Shown: piece by piece, positions 6,849 to 50,964 of the stretch
How the letters are laid out: each line of letters opens with the position of its first letter
Position numbering within the stretch: the stretch's first letter is position 1
Assembly: GCA_965204345.1 (NCBI GenBank)
Contig: OZ241981.1
Coordinates: forward strand, 32,001-96,000
DNA from: Nitrosopumilus sp.
GTDB taxonomy: Archaea; Thermoproteota; Nitrososphaeria; Nitrososphaerales; Nitrosopumilaceae
Length of the DNA: 64,000 bases
Direction: 5' to 3'
Program-made: the position numbers and the translations under genes
Notes under the pieces: generated by a model
What the model saw: the letters and a program-made list of their open reading frames with translations, nothing else
What the model was told of the DNA's origin: nothing
Database searches by the model: none

Positions 6849-7387
6849 AACAGATATGAAATTGTCACTACACCTCAAAAAGCAAAGCTTGGCCATCCAT
6901 ATATGACCAAAAACAGGTTCTCAGGATGCACATTTTGATATACTGACCCTTTTGGATCAGGTGTAATGGCTAATTTGCTTGCTCTGTTACTAGCAATCTT
7001 TGCAAACTCTATGTCACGTATTCTTAACGGCGTCTTGAAAAGCGTTTAAGATTGAACAGCGTAAAACAAAAACAAAGGATTCTGTCTTATCAGTATGTTT
7101 CTAGATACAGTGATTTGATAATTAAAAAAACAGAAGAAAGAAAAAGAAAAAGAAGAAAAAATCCAGAATGAAATCTCAAATGCTTCTCTATTAACACAAC
7201 TCACAAAAAAGAAAAACCTGTGCGCCACTTGAAAAGAAAAGAAAAAATTGAATCTCAAATTAAAATCAAAAACTAAAAGACAAGCAACAAAAATTCAAAA
7301 AAAAAACAGATTGCCAAAAAAGATAAAAAACTAAAACTTGTCTGGCTCCAAAAATCCCCTAAAAAACCGCTAAATAGCCTGAAAATA

Positions 7388-8092: not shown

Positions 8093-8485
8093 TTGAATTC
8101 AGGGATGACAACAAAGAAAAAGGCTGATCTATTGGACATAGTTCAGAAAATTCTCAAGTTGGACACCAAAATGAGATTTGCAGCCATAATTGATCCAAAG
8201 GGAAAGATCCGGGAAGCTATAATGAAAACGGGCAAAACCAATCTGAAATCCCAAAAGGAAGAAGAACATTTCTGTAAACAGGTCGCACAGAGAAGATCAA
8301 TGAGAAAAGAATTTGACAGGTCTCTTGGCAAAGTCAGATACGTTCATGTTGAGCGAGAAAAAGTCTCTCAAATGGTAATTTACACCAGACGAAATATTGT
8401 TTATTTCACTATGGAGCCTGAAATGCCAATTAATACCAAGATCAGGTTAATCACCAAAATCAAAAGAATCACTGCTGACCTCTAG
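8093..8485 (+). CDS. Thaumarchaeal DUF6659-like (roadblock/profilin-like) protein
   Basis: MRFAAIIDPKGK...MRKEFDRSLGKVRY...REKV pattern shared with 24183 and 29093. Confidence 0.7.
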   Translation: MNSGMTTKKKADLLDIVQKILKLDTKMRFAAIIDPKGKIREAIMKTGKTNLKSQKEEEHFCKQVAQRRSMRKEFDRSLGKVRYVHVEREKVSQMVIYTRRNIVYFTMEPEMPINTKIRLITKIKRITADL

Positions 8486-11662: not shown

Positions 11663-13477
11663 TTAGCTCAGTCTAGGCACAAAGATGTAGATTATGGCAA
11701 TTATCTCCAGCCTTCCAAATATCATCAGAAAGCTTAGAACGATCTTTGTTGCAGGATCTGTGTCAAAATTGATTATTCCTGCAGAAAGTCCTCCCGTGGT
11801 TATTACCCCTACTGATTCAAAAAATGCATCCTGGAACGGCACGTTCTCTATTTCTGCAAGATGCAGTCCTGACACTGCTGAGATTGATGGGAACAATGCA
11901 AGAATGATGAGTGTGGATATTAGCTCCTTTTTGGATTGCTCTGATAGCTTTGCCCTTTTTGCTTTGCTTAGCAATGCCGGAATGTCCCTTAGATGGAACA
12001 GTCTGAATATTTTCAAGCCTCCGGCAGTTGAAAAACCGCAACCCCCCACAAACATTAGTATTATCAGGACAGCATGTGCTCCTCCGTTTAATCCTGCAAG
12101 GCTTTCTTGCTGTAATCCTGCCGTGGTACTTGCAGATACTGAATAAAACGCACTCTGCATTGGATCCAGTCCGCTTAGCCCCATAAACAGAACAATTGCA
12201 CTGCTGAGAATCGCAAAATACGCCAGTACTTCTTTTCCAAGTTTTGGCGAAAGGAATTTTTTTCTTACAAACGCATAATGGAATGTAAATGGCAGTGCCC
12301 CTAGTATCATTGCCCCCATTAGGATTATGTGTTCCTGCCATAACAGCCCGTCAAGAATTGTGGATGTGGGCTTGAATCCGCCTGTCGCAAGTGTGCTCAT
12401 GGCCAGTGAAAAATTATCAATTATGCTTCCCTCATTAAAGATGTATAGCAGCAATGCAACAATCACAATGTAAATTGCAAAAATGACCGTAATGGTCAGG
12501 AAGAGCTCTTTCATATGCAGGGTTCTTCCTGATATAAAGCCCCTCATGGACTGCAGTTTTGATTCTGGATAGAACGCTGTAATTACCAGATAGATGAAAC
12601 TCATTCCTCCTACAAGCTGCGTATAGCTGCGAAAGAACGTGAAGCTTTGTGTTAGTTCTTCTGGCTTGTCAAAGAGGGATATGCCTCCTGTTGTAAATCC
12701 TGCGGCACTAGAAAAGAACGCATTTGCAAACACTTCCACATTGGTTTCATCACTGGGAAACACGTACAGATACGGCACCGTTCCAAACAGTGAGAGCAAA
12801 AACAGGCTTGAAAAGACCAGAATTGATGCCTGCTGCAGGTTTAGGCTTGATTTTTCACCATAAGAATTCAAAAAGAATCCTGTTACTAGCAAAAGCACCG
12901 TGGTGAGGTAAATTCCTGTCGCAGTTAATGGATCCTCTAGGACTGTCGCAACAATTGCAGGAACAAGCAGCAACACTCCTGCAAACTGCAAAACAAAGCC
13001 CAGGTTTCCCAAAATTGTCTTTACCGGCGGACTCAAAAGCCGAGGCGGAGTTGCAGTGGCATCCCTGATTACATTTGCAATAGTTGTTTGATAAACCATG
13101 CCAACGACCTGGTTTTTCTTTGATAATACCGGAAGCTTTCTGATGTTGTTATCTCGCATTTTGTGCAACGCTTCCTGCAATGTTGTTTTTTCACCAACTG
13201 TGATAAGCGGCGCACTCATCACATCCTTTAGCGTTGTGACCTCTGCGTAAACTGTAACATCGCTAACCTTGCTTAAAATGTCTTCATCTGTGACAATTCC
13301 AACCGGATTCCTTTCTTTGTCTGTAACAATTATGTCGTCTGTCTCATAGTGGCGCAGCATTCTGGCCGCTTCACTGGTTTGCGTATCTGAATTTAGGATC
13401 AAGACATCCTTGTCCATATAGTTTGTAACGTACTTGCTTAGGACATATGATACTGCCCGTTCCGGATTTGTTGACAT
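11663..13477 (-). CDS. trkH: CBS-domain-fused TrkH/KtrB potassium uptake membrane protein
   Basis: N-terminal CBS pair (VGIVTDEDIL; IRKLPVL) plus pore motifs FTTGG, LATGG, STTAG, ITTGG, and STAGGLKIFR, GRLEI. Confidence 0.88.
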   Translation of the reverse strand: MSTNPERAVSYVLSKYVTNYMDKDVLILNSDTQTSEAARMLRHYETDDIIVTDKERNPVGIVTDEDILSKVSDVTVYAEVTTLKDVMSAPLITVGEKTTLQEALHKMRDNNIRKLPVLSKKNQVVGMVYQTTIANVIRDATATPPRLLSPPVKTILGNLGFVLQFAGVLLLVPAIVATVLEDPLTATGIYLTTVLLLVTGFFLNSYGEKSSLNLQQASILVFSSLFLLSLFGTVPYLYVFPSDETNVEVFANAFFSSAAGFTTGGISLFDKPEELTQSFTFFRSYTQLVGGMSFIYLVITAFYPESKLQSMRGFISGRTLHMKELFLTITVIFAIYIVIVALLLYIFNEGSIIDNFSLAMSTLATGGFKPTSTILDGLLWQEHIILMGAMILGALPFTFHYAFVRKKFLSPKLGKEVLAYFAILSSAIVLFMGLSGLDPMQSAFYSVSASTTAGLQQESLAGLNGGAHAVLIILMFVGGCGFSTAGGLKIFRLFHLRDIPALLSKAKRAKLSEQSKKELISTLIILALFPSISAVSGLHLAEIENVPFQDAFFESVGVITTGGLSAGIINFDTDPATKIVLSFLMIFGRLEIIAIIYIFVPRLS

Positions 13478-13619
13478 TAAGCTATCCTTAGTTGGGGATT
13501 TTAAATAATTTGGGATTACTCGATAGTCTTGATCGTTAAAAAATAGTTAACCTACTTGATTTTGATCTCGCCTTTTTGCTATCTTTATAAGCATTAAATG
13601 CAAAGCTTAAGCGTATACA

Positions 13620-37965: not shown

Positions 37966-39123
37966 ATGATTTCAGACTCTGAAAATATTCGTAGAGCCAT
38001 CCTGTCTAGATGGCACGAATCTCTTTTAAGGCATGGCAATCTGTTCTCTTCTGATTTTGTGAGCGGTGCTAGTCCTCCGTCTGTATTTGTTGGATCATAC
38101 AACTACCCCAAAGTCCTCGTTGGTCCTATGGTGCCCCCAATTCATGGGGATACTAGTCTGTTAGATAGCCCTGAGCGATGGACAGGAAAGTCTTTAGAAG
38201 ACATTGTAAATTTTAGGCTCAATTTGGTCAGGGGCACACAAAAAATTCCAATAGGACAGACTGACGGGCGATACGTTGAAAATCTCCAAGAAGTTACAAT
38301 GTCTTCAAGGCCTATTGATTCTGATCTAGTTTTTCAGAGTTCTACTGCCCCTAGTGTTTCACTTGACGGTGAGAGTGCCCCTTTTGGTCCTATTGGCCAA
38401 ATAAAATCTGCAAAATTCTCTGCAAATGCTCCTGTAAAATCTATAGAAAAAACATACTATGACAAGGATCTAAAAGCTCAAGATGCTGTTTTAAATTTAT
38501 ATAATTCCGGAGTAGAAATTTCAAAAATCCAAAAATGCTTCAGTATTGGAATGCTCGGATGCAAAAGGAAGCTTGTTCCTACTAAATGGAGTATTACTGC
38601 AACTGATGATATTATTTGCAAATCGCTTACCGAGGACGTGTTAAACTACGGCCTGATTGACTCGCACAGGGTCTTTTCGTATGAGCATTTGGGGAATATC
38701 TTTTGCGTGGTATTGTTTCCACACCGATGGGTCTATGAAATGATTGAGGCCTGGTATTCTAACGGTGTCTTGGGTTTTGGCTCTGACTGTGAGGATGCCC
38801 GCGGAATTGATCATCCTCCCACTATTGCCGGTGCATATTTTGCTGCAAAACTAGGTGTTTTAGAATACCTTGTCAAAAATAAAGTTCAAGCAGGAGCTGT
38901 AATTTTACGAGAAATCCGTCCCGAGTATGCCATCCCTGTCGGTGTGTGGCAAGTGAGAGAGGGCGTCAGGGAGGCAATGAATAAAAAGCATCTCTTTGCC
39001 GATGATTTTGAGCACGCACTAACTTTGGCCTCAAATAAAACGAGCATCAGTAAATCTGAGTGGCTCATGCATGGAAATGTTGTCGAACTGACCAGACAGA
39101 AAGCTATTTCTGATTTTTTTTAA
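37966..39123 (+). CDS. nreA: Archaeal DNA repair protein Nre family
   Basis: SPPSVFVGSYNYPKV, LVPTKWSITATD, PVGVWQVRE, C-terminal PIP box QKAISDFF. Confidence 0.9.
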   Translation: MISDSENIRRAILSRWHESLLRHGNLFSSDFVSGASPPSVFVGSYNYPKVLVGPMVPPIHGDTSLLDSPERWTGKSLEDIVNFRLNLVRGTQKIPIGQTDGRYVENLQEVTMSSRPIDSDLVFQSSTAPSVSLDGESAPFGPIGQIKSAKFSANAPVKSIEKTYYDKDLKAQDAVLNLYNSGVEISKIQKCFSIGMLGCKRKLVPTKWSITATDDIICKSLTEDVLNYGLIDSHRVFSYEHLGNIFCVVLFPHRWVYEMIEAWYSNGVLGFGSDCEDARGIDHPPTIAGAYFAAKLGVLEYLVKNKVQAGAVILREIRPEYAIPVGVWQVREGVREAMNKKHLFADDFEHALTLASNKTSISKSEWLMHGNVVELTRQKAISDFF

Positions 39124-39189
39124 AATCTGCTGATTTAATTTTAAATATCATAATTTTGCATAAGTATTTTTTTGGGGGTTATTAGTAAA

Positions 39190-39736
39190 ATAATGAACTA
39201 TCTACCTTTCCTAACAATTCAAAAGATCATCAAACATTTCAGAAAAAGCTGCAGACAGAGGCAGTAAATACGCAGAAAAAAACTCTTAATCAATAATAAA
39301 GAACTTTGATAAACTCTGTAAGGAAAAATATGACAAACAGGTGGTGAGACAATTAAAAGCGATTCGTGATGAATATTTTACTAAAACTGGAAGAAGAAAT
39401 ATGACAAGCAGGAGATCAGACCAATAGCAGAATATCAAAAAATAGATCTAGGTATTGTTTACAAGTTACTCCAAGAGTGGATCAACTGGAACAGCAAGAA
39501 TATGCTTCTAAATGATATCCCAGTTTTTTCATGTATTAAAAAAATATCTCAGATATCACAACATAAAGATCACAAAAGAGGATATGGAAAATTCTCCGGA
39601 TTTTCCATACATGATCAAAGAGGAAAAACACCCACTGACAAAAGAGGAGCTGCAAGATATTGAGTCTGAGCAACAGGAAAAATTATCTCAAAATTATAGG
39701 ACAGTTATCAAGTGGATTAAGATTGATAGGACTTGA
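39190..39736 (+). pseudogene. Decayed N-terminal part of a thaumarchaeal tyrosine integrase
   Basis: Fragments IIKNFDKLCKEKY / VYKLLQEWINWNSK / LKKYLRYHNIKITKEDM...EEKHPLTKEELQDI in shifted frames with stops; no catalytic domain. Confidence 0.55.
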
Positions 39737-39759
39737 CAAGTACATTCTAATAAATATCA

Positions 39760-40085
39760 AAAAGTGAATTTTTCAGAATGAAAATATTATTACATGGTAT
39801 TTAGAAAAATTATCCATAAATTAGAGATTTCAATATGTAAGAATATCTCCTAAAATAAGAAATATCATTACACGGTATGATTTAGAAAAGAGAATAAATA
39901 TTCAAAGATTAGCGTGAAAAATACCAAAATCTACGTATAAGCCTGAACAATTTCTATGTCTGATCTTTAGAATTTAGGATAGATTGATTGGATTATCTTT
40001 GCATCGGAGAAGGGTATATTATCGAGAAGAAAACCATCTCTGAATTAAATCAAAAATGTTTGAAGTTCAAAGATGGATAAAATAT
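39760..40085 (+). pseudogene. tbp: Decayed TATA-binding protein gene
   Basis: VRISPKIRNIITRYDLEKRINIQRLA*KIPKSTYKPEQFLCLIFRI*D, then in shifted frames IFASEKGIL / KTISELNQ; aligns to the second repeat of the TBP at 46536-47075; stops at 39915 and 39975. Confidence 0.8.
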
Positions 40086-40127
40086 ACACTTGTCTAATCT
40101 TTTATTAGAGTTTTGTTGGTGGAAATA

Positions 40128-41474
40128 ATGGTGACACAGATAGAATTTGAGAAAGAAAATCTTCCAGAAGGATGGATTGTAACAGCAATTAGCAACATAA
40201 CAGAAACTGTACAAAAAATTAATCCTAAAGATACCCCCAATAAAATATTCCATTATTGTGACATAAATTCGATCGATAATAGTAGATTACAAATTACCAA
40301 TCCAAAACAAATTTTGGGTAAGAATGCACCATCTAGAGCAAGACAACTAATTAAGAAAAATGACATATTATTTTCCACTGTTCGAACATATTTGAAAAAT
40401 ATTGCGATGGTTCCAGAACATTTAAATGATAATTTGGCATCAACAGGATTTTGTGTTATACGAGCAGGAAAAATTAATGAAAAATTTATGTTTAATTATA
40501 TACAATCATCTCAGTTCATTGATCTAATAAACAGTGCACAAAGAGGAATAAGTTATCCAGCTGTAAGAAATAATGATGTACATAATAGCATTATTCCTCT
40601 CCCCCCACTCAACGAACAAAAACGCATCGTTACAAAAATCGAATCAATCTTCACACAGATTGATGCATGTAAAGAAGAATTAGATGTATTTGCATCGCAG
40701 ACCAAATCAGTTTCTTATAGTTTACAAACATTGAAGGGAAATATATTAAAACAAATGTTTGAAGAATTAAATAAAAAACACAGAGCAGATATGTTAGAGA
40801 AGGTGTGTATTGATATCCAATCGGGATTTGCTCAAGGGGAAAAAGATGTAAAAAATGGAATAATTCATCTTAGAATGAATAATATAGATACAAACTTCAC
40901 AATGAATTTTGAACTACTTCGGACTATCAATGCTACAAATAAACAAAAAGAAAAATATCTTTTACAAAAAAATGACATACTTTTTGTGAATACGAATAGT
41001 GTAGAATTAGTAGGCAAATCTGCTATTTTTACATTTGATAAAGACTGTCTTTATAGTAATCATTTAACACGTCTGCGCACTAATATTTCTATACTAGATC
41101 CAAAATTTCTCTTGTATTATTTTTATTATAAATGGATAAAACATGATTTTCGAAGTATATGTAATAAATGGATAAATCAAGTGGCAATTAATACTACAAA
41201 AATTAAACAACTACAAATTCCTCTTCCTCCCCTCAACGAACAAAAACGCATTGTTACAAAAATCGAATCAATCTTTGACAGGATTGATGTAAAACAAGAG
41301 GAAATGAAAAAGATTGAGATGCAGTTAAAATCAATTCCCGACAGCATTAATACATTGAAAGGCAGCATATTAAAAAAAGCATTTGAAGGTAAGTTGGTTC
41401 CACAGAATCCAAATGACGAACACGCATCTGTACTTCTTGAGAGGATAAAATCCCAAAAATCTAGGAAAATATAA
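40128..41474 (+). CDS. hsdS: Type I R-M specificity subunit (hsdS copy 1, complete, two TRDs)
   Basis: LPEGW, two IPLPPLNEQKRIV conserved regions, SILKKAFEGKLVPQNPNDE tail. Confidence 0.95.
   Translation: MVTQIEFEKENLPEGWIVTAISNITETVQKINPKDTPNKIFHYCDINSIDNSRLQITNPKQILGKNAPSRARQLIKKNDILFSTVRTYLKNIAMVPEHLNDNLASTGFCVIRAGKINEKFMFNYIQSSQFIDLINSAQRGISYPAVRNNDVHNSIIPLPPLNEQKRIVTKIESIFTQIDACKEELDVFASQTKSVSYSLQTLKGNILKQMFEELNKKHRADMLEKVCIDIQSGFAQGEKDVKNGIIHLRMNNIDTNFTMNFELLRTINATNKQKEKYLLQKNDILFVNTNSVELVGKSAIFTFDKDCLYSNHLTRLRTNISILDPKFLLYYFYYKWIKHDFRSICNKWINQVAINTTKIKQLQIPLPPLNEQKRIVTKIESIFDRIDVKQEEMKKIEMQLKSIPDSINTLKGSILKKAFEGKLVPQNPNDEHASVLLERIKSQKSRKI
40593..40666 (+). repeat. Inverted repeat A (left copy), 74 bp; partner 47835-47908
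   Basis: 73/74 nt identical to the reverse complement of 47835-47908. Confidence 0.95.
41233..41296 (+). repeat. Inverted repeat B (left copy), 64 bp; partner 47157-47220
   Basis: 57/64 nt identical to the reverse complement of 47157-47220. Confidence 0.9.
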
Positions 41475-41499
41475 ACACATGACATAAATTTACAAATAG

Positions 41500-42189
41500 T
41501 TGTTTATTCAAATTTCCAAGATAAAGAAAAAATATAATATCTTTACTAATAACATGCAAATGATTATGAGATCTAATTTACAAAATGATACTGGCCTAAA
41601 AATTCACAATAAAATAATTTTACAATTTTTTAAAGATTGTAAAGATAAAAAATTGTTATCCAATACAATAAAACCACAACAGAATAATACTATATGTACT
41701 CGTTGGGATATATCTAAGTTAACCGATCAAGCAATTCAAAAAATACGTAAACATAGGATTGATTTAAAAAACAATGAAAAAACACAATTTCTAAGTGATA
41801 AAGAACATGATGCCTTACAGTTTTCTCGCTGTGTGTCTTTTTTGAGAGACACTACCGAAGATTTGAAAATTTCATTACAGTTAATTATTGATCCATCACA
41901 AGTAAAATCATGTACTGAGCTTGGAAAATACCTTAACGAAATTTATAATAAACTAGGTTATAATGACGACAAGAAATCCAAAATGAATCGTGCCTTTCAA
42001 AAAGATCTCAGAAATGCATTAAGTCATAACAATTATTCGTATAAATGTGATAAAAACCATGTAAAGAGCATAACATGGCAAGATCATAATCAAAAACACA
42101 CATGGAATCAAGTGGAATTGTCCAAATCCATCTCAAAGATAATTTGCATAAATGGACTAATTGGCAAAATAATTAATGGGAAATTCTGA
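41500..42189 (+). CDS. Hypothetical protein with HEPN-like RxxxxH motif
   Basis: DLRNALSHNNY in a helical context; AT-rich; true start probably near 41554. Confidence 0.6.
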   Translation: MFIQISKIKKKYNIFTNNMQMIMRSNLQNDTGLKIHNKIILQFFKDCKDKKLLSNTIKPQQNNTICTRWDISKLTDQAIQKIRKHRIDLKNNEKTQFLSDKEHDALQFSRCVSFLRDTTEDLKISLQLIIDPSQVKSCTELGKYLNEIYNKLGYNDDKKSKMNRAFQKDLRNALSHNNYSYKCDKNHVKSITWQDHNQKHTWNQVELSKSISKIICINGLIGKIINGKF

Positions 42190-42197
42190 TACCGTGC

Positions 42198-43697
42198 TTA
42201 TTTTGGGATTTCCTTGTTGATAATGTCTTTTATATCTTCAAATGACTTGATCATGCCCTTTCTTAGATCAATAAACTGATCAATTAATTTGTCTGGTGGC
42301 AGAACAATTGTTTCAATTACATCTGTTGGATTGTTGGAGTCAAGATTGAAATCCTGAATGTCTTTAACATTAATTTTCCATGCATTTTCATTTGATGTCT
42401 TCTTTTTGAACCATTTTTCAATCTCTGCAAAGTCGTCATATGCGATTGGGTTTGACTTTGTATATTTGGGATTCTTTGCACGAGTTACTCCACGCAATCG
42501 TTCGGCTACCTTCATTTGATAATACCAAATTTCTTTGGTTGGTCCTGTCTTGTCAAAAAACAGTATGTTTGTTGCAATTGATGTGTAAGGCTCAAAAACA
42601 GTTTTGGGCAGCCTAATTATCGTATGCAAGTTAAATTCTTCAAGAAGTTTTTTCTTGATTTTAGAGGCAACGCCTCCTGCAAACATTGGACCATCTGGAA
42701 GAATAATTCCACACCGTCCTCCTTCTTTTAGAGAATACATGATGTATAACAAGAATGAAAGAGCAGTATCTGATGTCTGCATTCCTACAGGTAGATTGGA
42801 TGAAATTCCTTCCTCCTCTTCCCCCCCAAATGGTGGATTCGTTATGATAAGATCATACTGGTCATTTTGAGAAATTTCTCTCAGAGGATTAACAAGTGTG
42901 TTTGCTCTGATAATGTTTGGTTTGTCTACCTCATGAAGAAGCATATTCATCATTCCTAAAAGATAAGGCATGGATTTTTTCTCGATCCCAAATAATGTGT
43001 TTGTAGTTAGTTTCTTCAAATCTCCTTTTGTTTTTTGTTCATGTCTTAGAAACTCCAAAGATTCTACCAAAAATCCACCTGTACCACATGCAGGATCTAA
43101 TATCTTTTCAGATTTTTTTAGACTAGGGTTGATTTGATTTACAATAAACCGAATTACAGGTCTTGGTGTGTAAAATTCTCCACTATTTCCTGCGGCATCT
43201 CTCATCTCAATTAACATATCTTCATAGAGTTTTGCCATGGTGTGAATGTCATCAGTATTGATAAAATTTACCTTATCTATCAGATTAATAATCTGTCTGA
43301 GGAGGTATCCACTGAGTATTCTATTGTTTAATTCTTTAAAGATCGTTGCAATGACATCTCTTTGTTCAAAACCTTTATCACCTGTCAGTTTTGAGAGTTT
43401 TGGAAATAATTTATTATTTACAAATGAGATTAGATCAGGACCTGTTAAAACCTTGACAGTACGTCCTTTCTTATCTTTTTCTGCTGCCCAATCCTGCCAT
43501 CGTAATCCCTTTGGTATTGCCTCCACATATTTTCTATTTAGAGCAGCCCTCTCTCTTTCAAAATCATCAAAACTCTTTAGGAATAAAATCCATGCAATTT
43601 GAGGAATTCTATCAACATCAGTATTAAGACCTGCATCTTTTCTCATTAGATCTCTTGCAGATTTTATTATAGAACGAAGTGAATGTGCATCCATCAT
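42198..43697 (-). CDS. hsdM: Type I R-M methyltransferase subunit (m6A)
   Basis: GEFYTPR, LDPACGTGGF, NPPF, IIRLP. Confidence 0.96.
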   Translation of the reverse strand: MMDAHSLRSIIKSARDLMRKDAGLNTDVDRIPQIAWILFLKSFDDFERERAALNRKYVEAIPKGLRWQDWAAEKDKKGRTVKVLTGPDLISFVNNKLFPKLSKLTGDKGFEQRDVIATIFKELNNRILSGYLLRQIINLIDKVNFINTDDIHTMAKLYEDMLIEMRDAAGNSGEFYTPRPVIRFIVNQINPSLKKSEKILDPACGTGGFLVESLEFLRHEQKTKGDLKKLTTNTLFGIEKKSMPYLLGMMNMLLHEVDKPNIIRANTLVNPLREISQNDQYDLIITNPPFGGEEEEGISSNLPVGMQTSDTALSFLLYIMYSLKEGGRCGIILPDGPMFAGGVASKIKKKLLEEFNLHTIIRLPKTVFEPYTSIATNILFFDKTGPTKEIWYYQMKVAERLRGVTRAKNPKYTKSNPIAYDDFAEIEKWFKKKTSNENAWKINVKDIQDFNLDSNNPTDVIETIVLPPDKLIDQFIDLRKGMIKSFEDIKDIINKEIPK

Positions 43698-43728
43698 TAC
43701 TCATAATCGTATCGACATTAAATATGAT

Positions 43729-46095
43729 TCAGTTGTCTCTATACAATTCCTTTGTTAATTGTATTATTGCACCATCATATTCATCACCATCTTTGAATCT
43801 GTGATTGATGATTTCAGTAGGGCCTCCAAACTGTTTGAATTTTGGCAATTTCAAAACTCCTCTTTCCTCCAACTCTTGATACCCCTCCTCTGCATAATGA
43901 TCCAATATCACCTCTAGAACTTCTCGTGCTTTGTTCGGATATTTCTCCAAAAATGCCTTTTTATGTACAGAATTGATCCTCTCTAATCGAGTTTTTGCAT
44001 CTGCATTAAATGCAAAATGTAAGAGCATATCAAATGAATCAATCTTAGCCATCTGAGTGATTTCTTTAAGATGTGAAAAACTAACGCCTCTCTCTTCTAG
44101 TTGCTTTACAAAATGCTGTCTTTTTTCAGGATCTGTCCATATCTTGTATAGTTTTGTTTGTTCATCATTTACTAGACGGCGAACAGTCTCTCCAGTATAA
44201 TCTTGATAAGAAATAAGCCTATTCTGATTAATTGATTGATCAAAAATTAAAACCGATTCACCACGAATTTCTACTTTTTTTCCATTTATGTGATATGTTT
44301 TAATTGTTTGTGATTCTTGTTCTTCTTCTGCTTTATCTTCTAGTGCCTCTTTTACTGCATTTCTTCTTTTCTCTTCTGCACGTTCTAAGATTTTTTTTTC
44401 TTTTTCTTTAGTAATTATTTCTTGTTCTTCTTCAGTTTCTGCAATTGCAGGACCATCCCATTCTACATCCTCAAACAATCTACTAGTTTTTCTATAATCT
44501 ATAATTGAAAACCACATCTTATCTTTTGGTTCATAGACACGGGTACCTCTACCAATAATTTGTTTGAATTCAGTCATGGAATTAATGCTCTTATCTAATG
44601 CAATTATCTTGCATGTTGGAACATCTACGCCTGTTGACATTAATCTAGATGTAACTGCAACAATTGGAAAATCTTTGTTTGGTTCCTGGAATTGATCCAA
44701 GTATTCTCGTCCTATTTCACCTTCAGCAGAAACTATTCTGACACAATAGTCATGTCTTTCTCCAGAATAATTTCGAATTAGTTTAGTCATTGCTTGTGCA
44801 TGTTCTGAGTTTTGACAAAATAAAATCGTCTTGTTATATTTTTGATTATTTTTCTCCAAAAAATCTACAAGGTGTTTTGCTACGGTCTTTCGTCTCTCAT
44901 CAACAATTAAAATTCTGTCAAAATCTTTATAGCTGTATGTTTTGTCATCAAGTATCTTTCCATCTAAATCCGTTTCCCCTGGTTTTGGAATATATCCCGT
45001 CAGATCAATTTCAAGATTAACCCTGTGAATCATGTATGGTGCTAAAAAGCCATCTTCAATTCCTTGTTTTAGACTGTATGTGTATATAGGAATACCAAAA
45101 TAATCATACGTATCTTTATTTTCGTCCTTTCGTTTAGGAGTTGCAGTCATGCCTATGTGAACAGCATCTTTGAAATAATCCAATATCTTTCTCCAGCTCC
45201 CATCCTCATTGGAGCTTCCTCTGTGACATTCATCAATTATTATGTAATCAAAGAAATCTTTTGAATATTGCTTGTACAGCTCACAATCCTCTTTATCTAC
45301 ATCAAGTGCTTGATATAGTGCAAAATACATACTATATGCAGTCTGTGCAACTTTTTGGATCTTGTGTCTTGCTTCACCAAAACCTGCAAATGCATTATTT
45401 TTTGCTTGATCTAACAAAACGGTTCGATCTGCTAAAAATAAAATTTTTGGATGTGGGGTATCTTTTTTCCAGAGTTTTTGTGCAATTTGATAAGATATGA
45501 ATGTCTTGCCAGTTCCAGTCGCAAGATTTAAGAGTACGCGCTTCTTTCCTGCAAGAATTGCTGTTAATGTGGAATGGATTGCAATTTCTTGATAGTACCG
45601 AGGTTCCATGGGAGATCCTCCTGGATCTTTTGAACTTCGATCCAACGACTCTAATATAACATTCATTTGTTTTTTATTAAAATTTATACCTTCTTGGAAT
45701 CTCTCTAGTAATTCTTGAGGTGTTGGAAATTTATCTATTGTTTGTTGTTGTTTTTTGGAAAAGTCATATTCTTCAATTTTCTGTCCATTTGTTGCAAAAG
45801 CAAATTTTAACTCCATTTTTTCAGCATATTTTATTGCCTGACTCATTCCTTCATCATGTGGTTTGTCCCATGCTTTAGCTTCTATTACTGCAATTTTGTA
45901 ATCATCACCCAACTTGAGAATGTAATCAGCTATGATTGGTTGTGCCCTTTTTCCAGTACGGCCATCAGGAGTAATTCTGCCTTCATTAATTTTATATTCC
46001 CTAATGATTTTATCTAATTCCCAACCAGATTCTGCTAGCTTGGGATCAATATGTCTCATACAAGTGGTTGATTCGGACATCTTTTCTTCAGTCAA
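43729..46095 (-). CDS. hsdR: Type I restriction endonuclease subunit R (EcoAI/type IB-like)
   Basis: ADY...IEAK nuclease motif, RYYQ, ATGTGKT, DECHRG, TATP, QIIGRGTR, EcoEI-type C-terminus. Confidence 0.95.
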   Translation of the reverse strand: MTEEKMSESTTCMRHIDPKLAESGWELDKIIREYKINEGRITPDGRTGKRAQPIIADYILKLGDDYKIAVIEAKAWDKPHDEGMSQAIKYAEKMELKFAFATNGQKIEEYDFSKKQQQTIDKFPTPQELLERFQEGINFNKKQMNVILESLDRSSKDPGGSPMEPRYYQEIAIHSTLTAILAGKKRVLLNLATGTGKTFISYQIAQKLWKKDTPHPKILFLADRTVLLDQAKNNAFAGFGEARHKIQKVAQTAYSMYFALYQALDVDKEDCELYKQYSKDFFDYIIIDECHRGSSNEDGSWRKILDYFKDAVHIGMTATPKRKDENKDTYDYFGIPIYTYSLKQGIEDGFLAPYMIHRVNLEIDLTGYIPKPGETDLDGKILDDKTYSYKDFDRILIVDERRKTVAKHLVDFLEKNNQKYNKTILFCQNSEHAQAMTKLIRNYSGERHDYCVRIVSAEGEIGREYLDQFQEPNKDFPIVAVTSRLMSTGVDVPTCKIIALDKSINSMTEFKQIIGRGTRVYEPKDKMWFSIIDYRKTSRLFEDVEWDGPAIAETEEEQEIITKEKEKKILERAEEKRRNAVKEALEDKAEEEQESQTIKTYHINGKKVEIRGESVLIFDQSINQNRLISYQDYTGETVRRLVNDEQTKLYKIWTDPEKRQHFVKQLEERGVSFSHLKEITQMAKIDSFDMLLHFAFNADAKTRLERINSVHKKAFLEKYPNKAREVLEVILDHYAEEGYQELEERGVLKLPKFKQFGGPTEIINHRFKDGDEYDGAIIQLTKELYRDN

Positions 46096-46535
46096 TTTTC
46101 AACATAAAATTTTCAACATATTTCTAGATAAATGTTCTTTTTGAAAAATCAAATATTTTAGAATAAAATCAAGATTTGAATCTGCGAAATATTTTTGAGA
46201 ACTGATCTATTATACAGCTAACCATAGTGTGTTTATATCAGATCAAGAATAGGTGTGACTCTGAAAATATCTGGAATTTCTTGTATGGTGTAACAAGCAT
46301 TAGCTTGAACTCCTCTGTACAGACTGATTTTCACCTCCAATCATAACATTAACAAGTATTTACTTGTTGGACAGTAACGCAAAATATGCAAAATGAGAGA
46401 TGTTCATTAGATCTACAATTGTGGTACTTCGCACTATTGGATCTTTGGTTTTTATTTAGATTAGGACATATCTAGACAACTGATTACAAAATAGATTCAA
46501 TCTTAACAATTATTAGAAAAAATAAGAAAATTTCA

Positions 46536-47075
46536 CTAGATACATCTTACCTTGATATCAAATAATGCAGAATTTACTTCTGCAATGGTTTTTGCCCCTG
46601 CAATAACTCCTTTTCCTGATGCAAACAAAAGTGCTACACAGCTATCTTGAATTCTATATATCAAACCGGGAAATTGTTCTGGTTCATACATACTTTTTGG
46701 TAATATTCTTACAAGTTTTTCTATTGGCAAATTTTGTTTTAAATCGAATCGCGCTACAATATTTTGCACTTTGGGAGTAATTTTAATGAGTTTTGCAAGA
46801 TTATAATTATCCAGTATTTTTATTGCTTTTTTTAATTCTTTTTTAGATTGTGCAGGATTCTTTGTTCCAACTGAAATAAGTTTTCCATTTCCAAATACAG
46901 TAACTCGTCCAACCATCAAATCATCTTTTACATACCTACACCTGTATAAAGCAATATTTGAGCTGAGAAAGGGATATTTGTTAAAAGAAGCAATATCTAT
47001 TTTCTGTTTAAGATCTGCTGTAGTTACAGTGTTTTGAATTTTAATTCCTGCTACAAGCTTTGACTCTTTTTGCAT
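46536..47075 (-). CDS. tbp: Divergent TATA-box binding protein
   Basis: Two TBP repeats: IQNTVTTADL...VFGNGKLISVGTK and VQNIVARFDL...YEPEQFPGLIYR...LFASGKGVIAGAK. Confidence 0.9.
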   Translation of the reverse strand: MQKESKLVAGIKIQNTVTTADLKQKIDIASFNKYPFLSSNIALYRCRYVKDDLMVGRVTVFGNGKLISVGTKNPAQSKKELKKAIKILDNYNLAKLIKITPKVQNIVARFDLKQNLPIEKLVRILPKSMYEPEQFPGLIYRIQDSCVALLFASGKGVIAGAKTIAEVNSALFDIKVRCI

Positions 47076-47086
47076 TAAAATTCATG

Positions 47087-48346
47087 TTACCCTATCGCAT
47101 TAAAAATGAATGTATTATTCACATATGTGATTTTTTGTTTGATTAAATATAATATCTGCTTTACATCAATCTTGTCAAAGATTGATTCAATTTTGGATAC
47201 GATGCGTTTTTGTTCGTTGAAAGGCGATAGTAAGACAGGAATAGTTTTCATTGCTGTCTGATTAAGTTTCAATCGTGTTGTCCCAGTTACATATCCATGA
47301 TAATTCACCTGATTCAAATAGTGGCAAAGAAATTTGTTGATCAATAATCCAGATATTCCTTTAAGAACATGAGCATGATTATTAACCCAACTTTTTCCAT
47401 TAACAATGTAGGCTTTGTTTTTGAAAGTTTCAAAAAATGGTGCACCGTCTTCTCCCAACAAAACCAATTCTTCATCAAAAATATAATCATCAATCAAGCC
47501 AACTTGACCAGTAGCACCATAATATGGAATATTTCCAGTACGATTTTTCCGTTCACTAGAATTTACTGGTATTCTTTTTCTGTCCCAAATTTCTACAATA
47601 TCTTCCAAATTGATCTTAATCCAACCTTCTGGAAGATTCTCTTTCTCAAAAATCAACTCTTTCTCAGAACTCTTATGCAATCTCCTCAAAAGCATCTCTG
47701 CTGGCTCATCAGCTGGATCCTGTGAAACCAGCTTGCCCTCAAAGGCCTGCTTGAGCACGCTACTTCTTAGCATCCCCAGGCTGCCAGAAGATGACTTTAT
47801 TTGAGATGCAAGTGCCTCCAGCTTGTTTTGTGCCGCATCAATCTGTGTGAAGATTGATTCGATTTTTGTAACGATGCGTTTTTGTTCGTTAAGTGGGGGG
47901 AGAGGAATTGAATATATTGCCAGCTTTTCATATTTTATTCGAGGGTGTTGAACTCCTGTCATATTTCTATTAGCAAAACGTACAACCTGACTGGTAGATA
48001 AAAATAACATAATGTATTTGCTAACCAGATTGTCATTTTGTTGGAAAACCAATATGTCTGTGGAACACACTCCGTTAAAATCTGGAATTGCTACTTTGTT
48101 TAGATATGGACGTAATTTTCCATAAAGAATATCTCCCTTACTAAAGACATTTTTTGTGCTCTTTGTATCTTTTGAATTGGCCTTTCCAATAATTTTTCTT
48201 GAATTACTTTCTATGTGTTCTAATCCCACAAAAGGTTGATTTTTCTCATTCTTTGGATCAAATTTTCTTTTTGATTGATTCAGAACATTCAGTAAATCTG
48301 TTCTAATCCACCCTTCTGGAAGATGCTCTTTCTCAAAAATCAACAT
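47087..48346 (-). CDS. hsdS: Type I R-M specificity subunit (hsdS copy 2, two TRDs, C-terminal conserved helix truncated)
   Basis: LPEGW x2, KLRPYLNK, IPYYGATG, WVNNHAHVL; homology ends abruptly after IDVKQ. Confidence 0.9.
   Translation of the reverse strand: MLIFEKEHLPEGWIRTDLLNVLNQSKRKFDPKNEKNQPFVGLEHIESNSRKIIGKANSKDTKSTKNVFSKGDILYGKLRPYLNKVAIPDFNGVCSTDILVFQQNDNLVSKYIMLFLSTSQVVRFANRNMTGVQHPRIKYEKLAIYSIPLPPLNEQKRIVTKIESIFTQIDAAQNKLEALASQIKSSSGSLGMLRSSVLKQAFEGKLVSQDPADEPAEMLLRRLHKSSEKELIFEKENLPEGWIKINLEDIVEIWDRKRIPVNSSERKNRTGNIPYYGATGQVGLIDDYIFDEELVLLGEDGAPFFETFKNKAYIVNGKSWVNNHAHVLKGISGLLINKFLCHYLNQVNYHGYVTGTTRLKLNQTAMKTIPVLLSPFNEQKRIVSKIESIFDKIDVKQILYLIKQKITYVNNTFIFNAIG
47157..47220 (-). 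repeat. Inverted repeat B (right copy)
   Basis: Partner of 41233-41296; marks the point where hsdS2 homology stops. Confidence 0.9.
47835..47908 (-). repeat. Inverted repeat A (right copy)
   Basis: Partner of 40593-40666. Confidence 0.95.
48305..48337 (-). repeat. Inverted repeat C, 33 bp (tttgagaaaga..atcttccagaagg.tggatt); other copies 47618-47650 (-) and 40146-40178 (+)
   Basis: Three near-identical copies encoding FEKE(N/H)LPEGWI at TRD starts. Confidence 0.88.
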
Positions 48347-48559
48347 ATCAATTCTTTGTTTCTTTAATTTAAATTAGTCAAGTAACAGTTAAAGTGAAAA
48401 ATAGAATTTTATAAATCATAACAAATGAATCTCCTGCAATTGTTGCAAAGCTTTGAAATTATTGTACTATACTCCAAGGAGATTGTCATTGTGACATAAA
48501 CGTACTTTGTCTTTTCTTCAGATATTATAGTTAATGGTTTTATCTAGTTTATTAGCCAT

Positions 48560-49486
48560 TTAGATCTCTATTTTATACATGACTTTTTTGAATTCCCTAA
48601 AGAGATCTTCTAGGGTAGGCGTCAGATATACATGATCAAGACCATTTTTGTGACCCATTAGCTTTTCTGCAATGTTATAGTTTACTGAATTGTCCAGTTT
48701 TAAGACAGTATTGTATCGCTTTCTAAAACCATGATCTGCTTGGACGTCAAAACGATTTTTTGATTTTATTCTTTTCAGGTTACTTTTCTGAATTATTCTA
48801 TAAATTGCAGAACGAACGCCGTTCCAACCTAATTGTTTTGGAAGGAATTTGGTTGTTGCAAATATGGGAGTATCTTTGTAAAATATTTCTCCTTGATTTT
48901 TACGATATTCATGATAAGCTTTCAATGCCTTGGTTGCTTGTGGTGTAAGAAATGCCCAATACTCCTCAACATGTCCCGCATAAAGCAATATGCCAGTGCA
49001 ACCATATGACATCTTCATCATGTGTTTTATGGATAAATCGTGATCAAAAACTCCCACCCTTGCTCCTGTTGAACTAAAAAAGTACACCAAAGCTTTGTTC
49101 CTAAGGCTTGTTGTGTTGGATAATAATTTCTTGATTTCTTTTGTCGTATATGCCCTCAAGCTTTGCGTTTTTTGCTTTTGTGGGAACATTTTGTTTATGA
49201 TGTTCCAGTTAAGATTAATCTCATTCATTATACAGAAATGCTTTATGCCCTGAAACTTTGATGGGATAGAATTGGGGTTTGTAGTACGCTTTAGCTCGAT
49301 TAAATAATTCTCAAGATTATACTGCAAGTCTGTATTTGGAATACTTGTTAGTTGATTTTGGGATGTAATGTTTGCAAAATTTAAAAAAGAGTTAAGATGT
49401 GATGTATAATTCTTTTTTGTGTATTTTGATTTTATCGACTCTTCAAATAATAATGAACATCGATGTTTAGTTATTAAATTACTCAT
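48560..49486 (-). CDS. Tyrosine recombinase/integrase
   Basis: STGARVG (R), HGFRKR (H-x-x-R), LMGH...HVY (H, Y): catalytic set intact. Confidence 0.9.
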   Translation of the reverse strand: MSNLITKHRCSLLFEESIKSKYTKKNYTSHLNSFLNFANITSQNQLTSIPNTDLQYNLENYLIELKRTTNPNSIPSKFQGIKHFCIMNEINLNWNIINKMFPQKQKTQSLRAYTTKEIKKLLSNTTSLRNKALVYFFSSTGARVGVFDHDLSIKHMMKMSYGCTGILLYAGHVEEYWAFLTPQATKALKAYHEYRKNQGEIFYKDTPIFATTKFLPKQLGWNGVRSAIYRIIQKSNLKRIKSKNRFDVQADHGFRKRYNTVLKLDNSVNYNIAEKLMGHKNGLDHVYLTPTLEDLFREFKKVMYKIEI

Positions 49487-50208
49487 GTATTATTTTATTG
49501 TAAAATATTTATTTTTGTACATATGTTTATGAAATTAGAGCATCTTAATTTTTAGGATCATAATACTTTATCAAGATTGTTTTATATTCCCAGCATAAAA
49601 TCACAAACAGATTATTCTCTGATGATTTGGCATCTTGTAATATTTCCAAAATTGTTCCCATCTTTAAGATATGATTGCCTGCAGCTCATAATTAGTCATA
49701 CTGATAAAAAATATCGTTAGATTTACGTATGGAATTAAGGTCCAGAATGCCAAGTATCAATCTTTGCAGAAGTTAATATAACCTGGTGTAAAATATTGCC
49801 CTACACCTAAAATTATTACTGTAAAAACCAAAGAAAACCCAGAATAGTCTGCATTGGATTCTATTAATGAACTAACTGATGATTTGGACAAAACTTGGTG
49901 TTTCTTAGTTTAACTAAAATCAAATCCTGATTATAAAGACATTAATTTTTTTCCATATCATATGCATATGCCAAAGGGCATCAAAGGTAACTATCTTGCG
50001 CAAATTTGACACTTGCAGATGAATTTGATTACAGTTCATCAAGAAATGCCAATTTTGAATCCATGAACAATTACGTAACGTAATCATCATCTTCTGGGGC
50101 ATGTGTGCGTGCGTTTCTACTCTATCTTTTTTTTCATCATTGGAATTATCTGCTGATCTGCCCTAATCAGAGAGCATAAATCCTAGATTTAAATAAAAAA
50201 ATGAAACG

Positions 50209-50964
50209 ATGAATGAAGATTTGGCGGGAACTGATTATTCCAAATATGGCAAATACACAGTTGATGATTCTCTTGAATTGTCCCTGCCTGGAACCACTAT
50301 AAAATTTGAAAAAATAAGCGAAAATGCTTTTTCATATTTTAGAGAGGATTCTGAGGGCAAAATAACTGAAAAAATGATCCCTGTTCATTCTGATGAATTA
50401 AAGATTGAAATGGCTCCTATCAGGCCCCTTAACCATCCGGCAAGACGTACCGGATACGTCTTTTTAAAATTTGACAAGGAAATCTATCTCAGCCAAAACT
50501 CTGCGGCTAGCATCTTTGTCCACTGCCCAATCGAAGTTGGCATTTTCATAGTTAATGGACCTGCCAGAGAATCCCTGGATTGGATTACGTGCAATCCCCT
50601 TAATTCTAGGTTTGGCCTGTATGGCCCTCCTGATACCGGAATTTTGTGCAAGTATGCCAAAGTCACACTGGCTACTGACTTTGCAGATTCTGTTCCCTAT
50701 GTTGAATGTGTGATGAAAGTTGTCATTGAAAATAATCTGAGTTCCGGGCAAACAATTAGCAAAATAATTTTCCCAATTACTGATAATTCCCTCTACTATG
50801 AAGACTCTAAATCTGTCTTAGATGGAATCAAAGTGACTTTGAAAAAGCGGGCAGTTGTCAGTATTGCAGATGTCCAAACTGCCGTATTGGATACTGACTG
50901 GAAAAAATCCCCCACATGGGAAGACAACACAAAAAATACCTCCATGGAGATGGGATTGGAATGA
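50209..50964 (+). CDS. DUF432 domain protein
   Basis: PIRPLNHP...CPIEVGI...LYGPPDTGILCKY; adjacent to mscS as is common in archaea. Confidence 0.75.
   Translation: MNEDLAGTDYSKYGKYTVDDSLELSLPGTTIKFEKISENAFSYFREDSEGKITEKMIPVHSDELKIEMAPIRPLNHPARRTGYVFLKFDKEIYLSQNSAASIFVHCPIEVGIFIVNGPARESLDWITCNPLNSRFGLYGPPDTGILCKYAKVTLATDFADSVPYVECVMKVVIENNLSSGQTISKIIFPITDNSLYYEDSKSVLDGIKVTLKKRAVVSIADVQTAVLDTDWKKSPTWEDNTKNTSMEMGLE

Follow-up and report, generated by a model that had tools for sequence, protein, structure and literature searches.

Epigenetic invertons of bacteria combine multiple hsdS genes, which encode the specificity subunits of Type I restriction-modification (R-M) systems, with inverted repeats and an invertase, as the relevant passages of Huang et al. 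2020 describe for S. pneumoniae cod/ivr with PsrA/CreX, B. fragilis and E. faecalis (PMC7672463); related literature includes Li et al. 2016 on invertible Type I hsdS loci (PMC4948785) and Atack et al. 2020 (PMC7394358). Here we analyse a 64,000-nucleotide stretch of a Nitrosopumilus sp. genome (contig OZ241981.1; hereafter the window), from an archaeon, with window DNA present in sequencing runs that carry a sponge metagenome label. In this stretch two oppositely oriented genes, hsdS1 and hsdS2, face each other across orf229, hsdM, hsdR and a TBP paralog gene (tbp), and we consider it probable that they form a recombinase-type invertible Type I hsdS locus with four possible specificities and a single shared 3′ tail.

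The nearest layout is said to be that of the M. pulmonis loci hsd1 and hsd2 with HvsR, reportedly the work of Dybvig and Yu in 1994, Dybvig in 1998 and Sitaraman in 2002. There, opposite hsdS genes reportedly flank hsdM and hsdR, and a tyrosine recombinase is said to use short intragenic sites in the 5′ and central parts of the genes, giving chimeric hsdS genes and phase-variable restriction, with a single outside promoter deciding expression; HvsR is said to be encoded elsewhere and to serve the vsa locus as well. The window locus would differ from this reported arrangement in having central and distal sites, a limiting 3′ tail and a recombinase gene next door.

With the bacterial epigenetic invertons the window locus shares at least two hsdS genes per Type I locus, in-frame inverted repeats in conserved hsdS regions and a tyrosine recombinase gene alongside, and inversion would exchange recognition domains and so change specificity. 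An hsdS pair flanking hsdM and hsdR, in-frame inverted repeats and an invertase homolog, the features by which Huang et al. 2020 delimit an inverton in the passages concerned, are all present (PMC7672463). That survey covered 827 loci from REBASE and 1140 from NCBI, and in its Tables 1 and 2 the archaea are Euryarchaeota only, with 4 and 11 loci; the archaeal host studied here lies outside the phyla of these tables, to which the supplements might add (PMC7672463). The architecture also differs. In the survey's account of gene order the first hsdS alone is intact and co-transcribed and the secondary copies are promoterless, silent and 5′-less (PMC7672463), and the pertinent passages of Milman et al. 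2023, from a bacteria-only scan, give loss of the 5′ part as the usual asymmetry (PMC9881135), whereas both hsdS genes in the window keep their 5′ ends and upstream regions, the swapped part is the 3′ tail, and hsdR, hsdM and tbp ride inside the invertible segment. Clade-2 (TvrR-like) invertase loci, which in the survey's text include the only archaeal (Euryarchaeota) matches, have hsdS genes in mixed orientation whose inversion yields truncated HsdS, read as ON/OFF (PMC7672463). Truncation in the window locus is always coupled to completion of the other hsdS, which argues for a swap of specificity, unlike the ON/OFF reading of clade 2.

The hsdS pair and its inverted repeats

HsdS1 and HsdS2 each contain two Methylase_S (PF01420) stretches, corresponding to two target-recognition domains (TRDs), and share 32% identity overall in BLASTP, mostly in conserved regions, with differing TRDs. 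An earlier note on this DNA had claimed that hsdS2 is cut at repeat B, where HsdS1 continues into a conserved tail, and the BLASTP endpoints bear this out: the last aligned residues are Q395 of HsdS1 and Q397 of HsdS2, at the close of ...KIESIFD(R/K)IDVKQ, beyond which HsdS1 extends for 58 residues starting EEMKKIEMQLKSIPDSINTLKGSILKKAFEGKLVPQNPNDE and HsdS2 for 22 unrelated residues, ILYLIKQKITYVNNTFIFNAIG, to a stop at 47089-47087 with the tbp ATG 11 nucleotides (nt) past it. In AlphaFold2 models of the two proteins, built from 71-row alignments, HsdS1 has a central helix at residues 166-222 and a distal helix at 374-424 that runs for 51 residues at a predicted local distance difference test score (pLDDT) of about 88-95, and comparison with solved structures in Foldseek matches the model to HsdS chain 3okg_A (E 1.9e-26) and to 5ybb_D (E 4.7e-25). 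The 397-codon body of HsdS2 is modelled at a mean pLDDT of 88.5, with a drop from 95 to 38 across residues 381-419; both TRDs and the entire central helix are retained, and the distal helix is conserved for its first 22 residues, to residue 397 only, so that HsdS2 shows the HsdS fold only in part. In HsdS structures the two conserved helices pair, fixing TRD spacing and binding HsdM. An hsdS2-type relative of 439 amino acids (aa; P0003, 63% identity over 95% of HsdS2) has a complete tail, which indicates that the hsdS2 body is a normal HsdS once completed.

Two inverted repeats, A and B, connect the two genes (Table 1), repeat B with exact runs of 19, 16 and 12 nt. Each arm holds a core site, an imperfect palindrome of the pattern GAATCAATCT-N6-RGATTGATG over the codons for IESIFxxID. 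The pattern occurs at four sites in the 64-kilobase (kb) window, all in hsdS, against 0.03 expected by chance (seven matches if palindromic re-reads on the other strand are counted), and no core-like site beyond these four was found at the borders of the surrounding island or elsewhere in the window. Core sites of tyrosine recombinases such as dif, loxP and FRT consist of two inverted arms and an asymmetric spacer of 6-8 nt that matches between partners. The window sites resemble them in their 8-6-8-like palindrome, partner-identical spacer and tolerance of mismatches in the arms, and differ in that the predicted sites are embedded in coding sequence.

Across the paired loci described below, partners share the same 6-nt spacer after GAATCAATC(T/C) in all 18 pairs (nine at A, nine at B), and the spacer varies between loci, with four A spacers (TCACAC, TCTCAC, TCGCAC and TCTCCC) and five B spacers (TTGACA, TTGATA, TTGGCA, TTGCCG and TTGGTA); mismatches between partners all fall in the arms and none in the spacers. 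Because A spacers are always unlike B spacers, crosses of A with B would be prevented. For 39 sites selected only on their peptide (IESI[FL]..ID), conservation at third-codon positions was 100, 100, 100, 87, 100 and 82% in the arms and 38-90% in the flanking codons, equally conserved EQKRIV codons included. The palindrome is absent from an hsdS pair in genome G146 that has the peptide IEELFSLID.

Inversion at B in silico between 41265 and 47188, with the crossover in the 16-nt exact run, keeps both genes in frame: HsdS2 gains the full tail (455 aa) and HsdS1 loses it (417 aa), in agreement with the earlier proposal that inversion completes hsdS2 and truncates hsdS1. The interval first suggested for it, 41265-47190, does not hold: it is asymmetric by 2 nt and gives out-of-frame products of 393 and 389 aa, a frameshift that is a coordinate slip and no biological failure. 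The accompanying idea of a binary switch proved too narrow, as inversion at A also yields in-frame products (433 and 439 aa), and A followed by B yields 469 and 403 aa, again in frame; since A and B both recombine in frame, four full-length TRD combinations are reachable.

We envisage two fixed sockets, each an upstream region and an hsdS body with two TRDs, that would face an invertible segment carrying the sole hsdS 3′ tail at one end and, at the other, a tail-less stub followed by tbp, hsdR and hsdM. A flip at B would hand the tail to the other body and place tbp-hsdR-hsdM behind the body that loses it, and a flip at A would exchange the second recognition domain as well, giving the four full-length HsdS combinations. 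The reaction would likely be catalysed by the Xer-like tyrosine recombinase encoded next door, with strands exchanged in the 6-nt spacer. A body without the tail would probably yield a protein missing most of the distal helix; such a protein may well be inactive, and one hsdS would then be functional at a time.

Related loci, a natural flipped form and a second allele

Among 401 genomes of the family, counting the window's own with 400 others, the core pattern was present in 12, all of the window's genus (11 of 98 sampled, plus its own genome), and the reversed pattern, used as a control, gave no match in the 401. The sites form nested inverted sets, A+ B+ ... B- A-. Nine loci have paired sites: the window, contig C3 of the same assembly, and loci in genomes G177, G291, G371, G375, G353, G274 and G385. 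At every one of the nine, one hsdS has the full tail and the other is cut 1-5 codons past the B core and closes with an unrelated end, and a recombinase homolog (60-71% identical) lies beside the segment (six loci) or inside it (G291, G375 and G274). Their R-M cargo differs: G177 has EcoAI-type hsdR and hsdM behind the tail-less copy, like the window, together with an 860-nt inverted repeat at 98.4%; the B-B segment of G371 consists of the tail and hsdM only (2.1 kb); and in G385 hsdM, hsdR and an open reading frame come after the full copy. Lone core sites occur in G372, G359 and G322; in G372 an unpaired, junk-tailed hsdS adjoins an hsdR fragment. The sites of G382 are split over two contigs. 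Two cores are present in 55 of the 120 best database relatives of HsdS2, and the distal tail is missing from 16 of these 55, whose ends, 14-74 residues long, are mutually unrelated. The replacement ends are thus unrelated in sequence and length among loci, which argues that they are not selected as protein.

Contigs of four public runs (X1, X2, X5 and X7) were aligned to positions 38500-50500; assembled contigs drop rare variants. Run X2, which comes from a study other than the likely source, contributed 147 placed contigs, 80 of them at least 99% and 61 of them 95-99% window-like. One X2 contig connects 41280 with 47172, the two lying on opposite strands; its shorter side measures at least 255 nt, 16 nt fit both sides, and its depth is 21.5 against about 22-30 for the island. 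Its content, hsdS1 body, B, junk tail and tbp, is that predicted for a B flip, and places tbp behind hsdS1 just as the earlier note had foreseen. The 16-nt exact run is shorter than the 30-nt contig overlaps, so a graph artefact is unlikely at this junction, and the crossover falls in 41265-41280, the left arm and spacer of the core, away from the longer 19-nt run. The end of a second X2 contig has 17 letters ending in the hsdS2-specific CGTATCC before the hsdS1 tail at 41259 and matches the reciprocal product, for which 17 letters are thin support. No X2-type joint is among those listed for X5, X7 and X1. The pattern for the junction of tail and tbp had no match in metagenome contigs and none in genome contigs, and of 100 pattern matches to related loci of HsdS1 in metagenome contigs none was confirmed.

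A second allele of the locus lies on contig C3 (10,621 nt), which carries an Nre gene 99.2% identical to that of the window, a left flank 98.6% identical over 355 nt, and the 3′ end of the recombinase gene. Its Type I cargo is of a different family, with a 914-aa HsdR and hsdM overlapping the full hsdS. The protein of the tail-less copy closes with ...IDVKQILYLIKQKITSVNKTFVFNAVR, and tbp comes next; these two genes lie toward Nre and the full copy toward the recombinase gene, an arrangement opposite to that of the window. The hsdS pair forms a 750-nt inverted repeat at 99.6% identity. Both orientations of the locus, as looked for in an inverton and as the earlier note had proposed to seek, therefore occur in nature, in the B-flipped junction of the independent run X2 and in the opposite orientation of C3. 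In X5 and X7 the depth is 12-55 at C3-like joints, 86 and 106 for the window form, and 122 and 152 in the flanks; as the window and C3-like depths roughly sum to the flank depth, C3 is a minority allele of the same locus. The B-junk-tbp junction is 92.9% identical between window and C3 over 686 nt, and single contigs of X5 and X7 span the junction of the hsdS2 junk tail and tbp (46693-47659), from which it follows that the hsdS2 end is not an assembly artefact. Within the junk tail 5 of 22 residues differ between the two alleles, which suggests no selection as protein.

Contig breaks at repeat B were considered as a hint of mixed states. Those in X7 (41265/41294) are explained by the C3-like allele, which has 33 nt in common with the B site of hsdS1; those in X1 (41280 and 47188, with 19 unlike letters before 41265) were rejected as such a hint as well, the C3-like allele being present there. 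An X1 joint from 40593 to 47616 on opposite strands could be an A-type product but was set aside, being too short (side 40) and too shallow (depth 8.3). Separately, contigs of X1 (depth 25.3) and X2 (depth 21) omit 687 nt (47639-48325) of hsdS2, a deletion bounded by direct repeats (47617-47657 and 48304-48344) through which hsdS2 loses TRD1 together with the central conserved region and shrinks to half size.

The recombinase and competing explanations

The candidate invertase has the catalytic residues R143, H252-x-x-R255, H279 and Y287, invariant among 12 homologs. Several observations nonetheless weigh against a recombinase-driven invertible locus. The protein scores below the cut-offs of Pfam Phage_integrase (PF00589; E 1.6e-5, 25.2 bits against 27.1) and NCBIfam XerA (E 2e-14, 53.8 bits against 220) and its sequence has no match in the PDB at E <= 0.01; with such scores it is a distant member, placed at the level of the Xer/integrase superfamily only. 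Its homologs adjoin tbp without an hsdS pair in G299, G303, G311 and G063, so integration of the island may be the enzyme's main role. The two arms of repeat B agree at only 89%, and their longest exact run is 19 nt. Identical spacers could come from gene conversion too, and as the related loci are kin and not independent, the recombinase is a candidate, and no more than the likely enzyme, for these sites. No run contains the two states side by side: a single contig of X5, the likely source run, covers 40637-46722 without a break in the window state, and in X2 almost all of the depth belongs to the flipped form. In the protein collection there is no near-identical 455-aa form of flipped HsdS2 (best non-self match 71% over 39%) and no 417-aa form of flipped HsdS1 (best non-self matches 40% over 99% and 70% over 67%). 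One dominant state per run points to alternative states in related populations, each nearly fixed, rather than to switching within a clone; frequent flipping within a lineage, that is phase variation, may also take place.

In one alternative, the flips would come from rare, unprogrammed homologous recombination or gene conversion between the conserved hsdS regions, with the states being strain polymorphisms fixed per population and the recombinase only integrating and excising the island. Such an account fits the essentially single state per run, the polymorphism of the island itself (depth about 217-220 in the X1 flanks and about 30 in the island) and the recombinase-tbp pairs without hsdS pairs, and the 750- and 860-nt inverted repeats of the relatives would support homologous recombination. 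We regard it as unlikely all the same, since the X2 crossover lies in the 16-nt core interval and not in the longer 19-nt run, the arms are conserved at synonymous sites, the spacers co-vary in all 18 pairs with mismatches confined to the arms, the island borders have neither a core-like site nor a direct repeat above 10 nt, and the design of one full and one tail-less hsdS recurs in nine of nine loci despite different R-M cargo.

The remaining alternatives concern hsdS2 itself. Were it a decaying remnant of an old rearrangement, heading for loss and never to be completed again, one could account for the unconserved 22-codon end, the 687-nt deletion in X1 and X2 and the lone junk-tailed hsdS of G372; the open 397-codon body with two intact, confidently modelled TRDs, the 98.6% identity of repeat A over 74 nt despite differing TRDs, the same cut position in all nine paired loci and in 16 of the 55 two-core database relatives, and the completed form of the partner exchange seen in X2 make decay very improbable. 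We give the lowest probability of all to a tail-less HsdS2 that is active as it is, with both specificities working at once and inversion changing nothing important. It is true that the body loses neither TRD and nothing of the central helix, that 22 residues at the start of the distal helix remain, and that hsdS2 heads an operon with tbp, hsdR and hsdM; against this stand the confidently predicted 51-residue distal helix of HsdS1, the collapse of confidence in HsdS2 after about residue 398, the unrelated ends of 14-74 residues that replace the tail among loci, and the pairing of conserved helices on which TRD spacing and HsdM binding depend in HsdS structures.

The island, its cargo and the TBP paralog

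The whole system lies inside a variable island of low guanine-cytosine (GC) content (Table 1), bordered by an archaeal Nre gene (37966-39123) on the left and a DUF432 gene (50209-50964) on the right; the Nre and TBP genes show the host to be an archaeon. One X1 contig connects 39125 to 50020, one side being only 30 nt. A search for attachment repeats at the island borders gave matches of 10 nt at most and none at both joint positions, and no tRNA gene that could be an integration target is present in the 64-kb window. At its right end (49592-49993) the island contains a repeat of about 400 nt that recurs at G000 C1:905742-906138 (89.6%) and on contig C8 (89.5%). Thaumarchaeal integrated elements with Type I R-M genes and XerC/D-family integrases are described in passages of Krupovic et al. 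2019 (PMC6563490), and the island is like them in its low GC content, strain variability, Xer-like integrase and HsdM/S/R cargo; the main text of that paper contains no 'inversion', 'TBP' or 'TATA', and its main-text passages describe neither paired tail-less and full hsdS genes nor core sites (PMC6563490).

With HsdR above the curated cut-off and HsdM and HsdS at the same locus, the cargo is a Type I R-M system of the EcoAI/FtnUII family. The database protein P0121 is the hsdS1 product from an ATG at 40128 (448 aa). The orf229 product has no Pfam match above cut-off and no NCBIfam match; at the corresponding segment end G385 has orf216, which is unrelated to orf229.

Table 1. Features of the probable invertible hsdS locus and its island in window coordinates
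Feature	Position	Strand	Details
Low-GC variable island, whole system inside	39126..50019	.	GC 0.27-0.35 vs 0.40-0.43 in flanks
tbp pseudogene fragment upstream of hsdS1	39828..40001	+	41% identity to TBP residues 94-151
hsdS1, full-length specificity subunit, 453 aa	40113..41474	+	Pfam Methylase_S (PF01420) E 5.8e-23
N-terminal repeat (FEKENLPEGW)	40146..40185	+	inverted partners 48298-48337 and 47618-47650
Repeat A arm in hsdS1	40593..40666	+	partner 47835-47908; 74 nt, 1 mismatch (98.6%), 56-nt exact run
Core site A in hsdS1	40641..40665	+	GAATCAATCT-TCACAC-AGATTGATG, within IESIFTQID codons
Repeat B arm in hsdS1	41233..41296	+	partner 47157-47220; 64 nt, 89% complementary
Core site B in hsdS1	41265..41289	+	GAATCAATCT-TTGACA-GGATTGATG
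Single shared 3′ tail, 58 codons + stop	41298..41474	+	most of distal conserved helix + AFEGKLVPQNPNDE motif
orf229, inside invertible segment, directly after hsdS1 tail	41500..42189	+	
hsdM	42198..43697	-	Pfam N6_Mtase E 5.3e-63, HsdM_N E 5.2e-9
hsdR, EcoAI/FtnUII family	43729..46095	-	NCBIfam NF046051, 889.4 bits vs cut-off 550
TBP paralog gene (tbp)	46536..47075	-	Pfam TBP E 1.9e-31
hsdS2, tail-less specificity gene, 419 aa, two intact TRDs	47087..48346	-	Pfam Methylase_S (PF01420) E 6e-33
Junk tail of hsdS2, 22 unrelated codons, also upstream region of tbp	47090..47155	-	
Core site B in hsdS2	47164..47188	-	GAATCAATCT-TTGACA-AGATTGATG
Core site A in hsdS2	47836..47860	-	identical to hsdS1 core site A
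Tyrosine recombinase, 308 aa, candidate invertase	48560..49486	-	

The TBP paralog shares 95% identity with its C3 counterpart and 33-45% with the genome's other TBP genes, of which the housekeeping-like ones reach only 33-35%. The pseudogene fragment upstream of hsdS1 contains one TGA and one TAG internally, and allele C3 (locus L017) has a tbp pseudogene fragment at the equivalent place (8303-8476, minus strand). Among relatives, island-type tbp was followed at loci L048, L049, L050, L051, L058, L059 and L065; copies 51-73% identical directly adjoin the recombinase gene, in the order tbp then int, in G299, G303, G385, G063 and G353, and in G291 the gene sits between hsdR and the tail-less hsdS. 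Elsewhere in the window's own genome (G000 C1:228678-236754), a TBP paralog 44% identical occurs with a half-size hsdS and an hsdM-like gene. At locus L052 (G353 C1:111500-131400) an island-type tbp is apparently split in two, as if by insertion or rearrangement: 6896-7117 encodes residues 1-73 and, about 6 kb away, 13321-13580 encodes residues 82-168.

A more elaborate form of the invertible-locus reading would make this a lineage-specific archaeal tail-swap inverton with the TBP paralog as a working part, either a DNA-bending helper of the recombinase or a transcription factor for the R-M genes; we hold this to be distinctly unlikely. As a helper the paralog would be an archaeal counterpart of IHF or Fis, and as a regulator a counterpart of the bacterial C proteins; with tbp fixed to the tail-less end, each flip would rewire which hsdS promoter drives tbp-hsdR-hsdM. 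Complex prediction for the recombinase and the TBP paralog scored 0.00 in both runs, which counts neither for nor against binding.

In the archaeal literature examined, the relevant passages of Chanin et al. 2023 report 12 invertons in 42 archaeal long-read sets, none named as hsdS (PMC10028968), an archaeal R-M survey contains no word starting 'inver' (PMC10609329), and a review of archaeal tyrosine recombinases contains no 'hsdS' or 'restriction' (PMC8371274). Inversion of hsdS in this archaeal lineage is undocumented in the parts of the literature covered, whose supplements might list such loci. The locus described here is set apart by the sharing of a 3′ tail instead of promoterless, 5′-less cassettes, a lineage-specific core site, and a TBP paralog in the operon.

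Invertible hsdS loci, with tyrosine or serine invertases, are an established bacterial means of varying restriction specificity and genome-wide methylation; for archaea there is only the computational listing of a few Euryarchaeota (PMC7672463). With the window locus and its eight or more relatives, all from a single genus of a thaumarchaeal-type family, the mechanism would reach a further archaeal lineage. The 8-6-8 core with co-varying spacers provides a clean, testable site, and TBP paralogs show a recurrent linkage with the recombinase and Type I genes. For sponge symbionts under high viral pressure, the locus suggests diversification of defence specificity at the level of the population.

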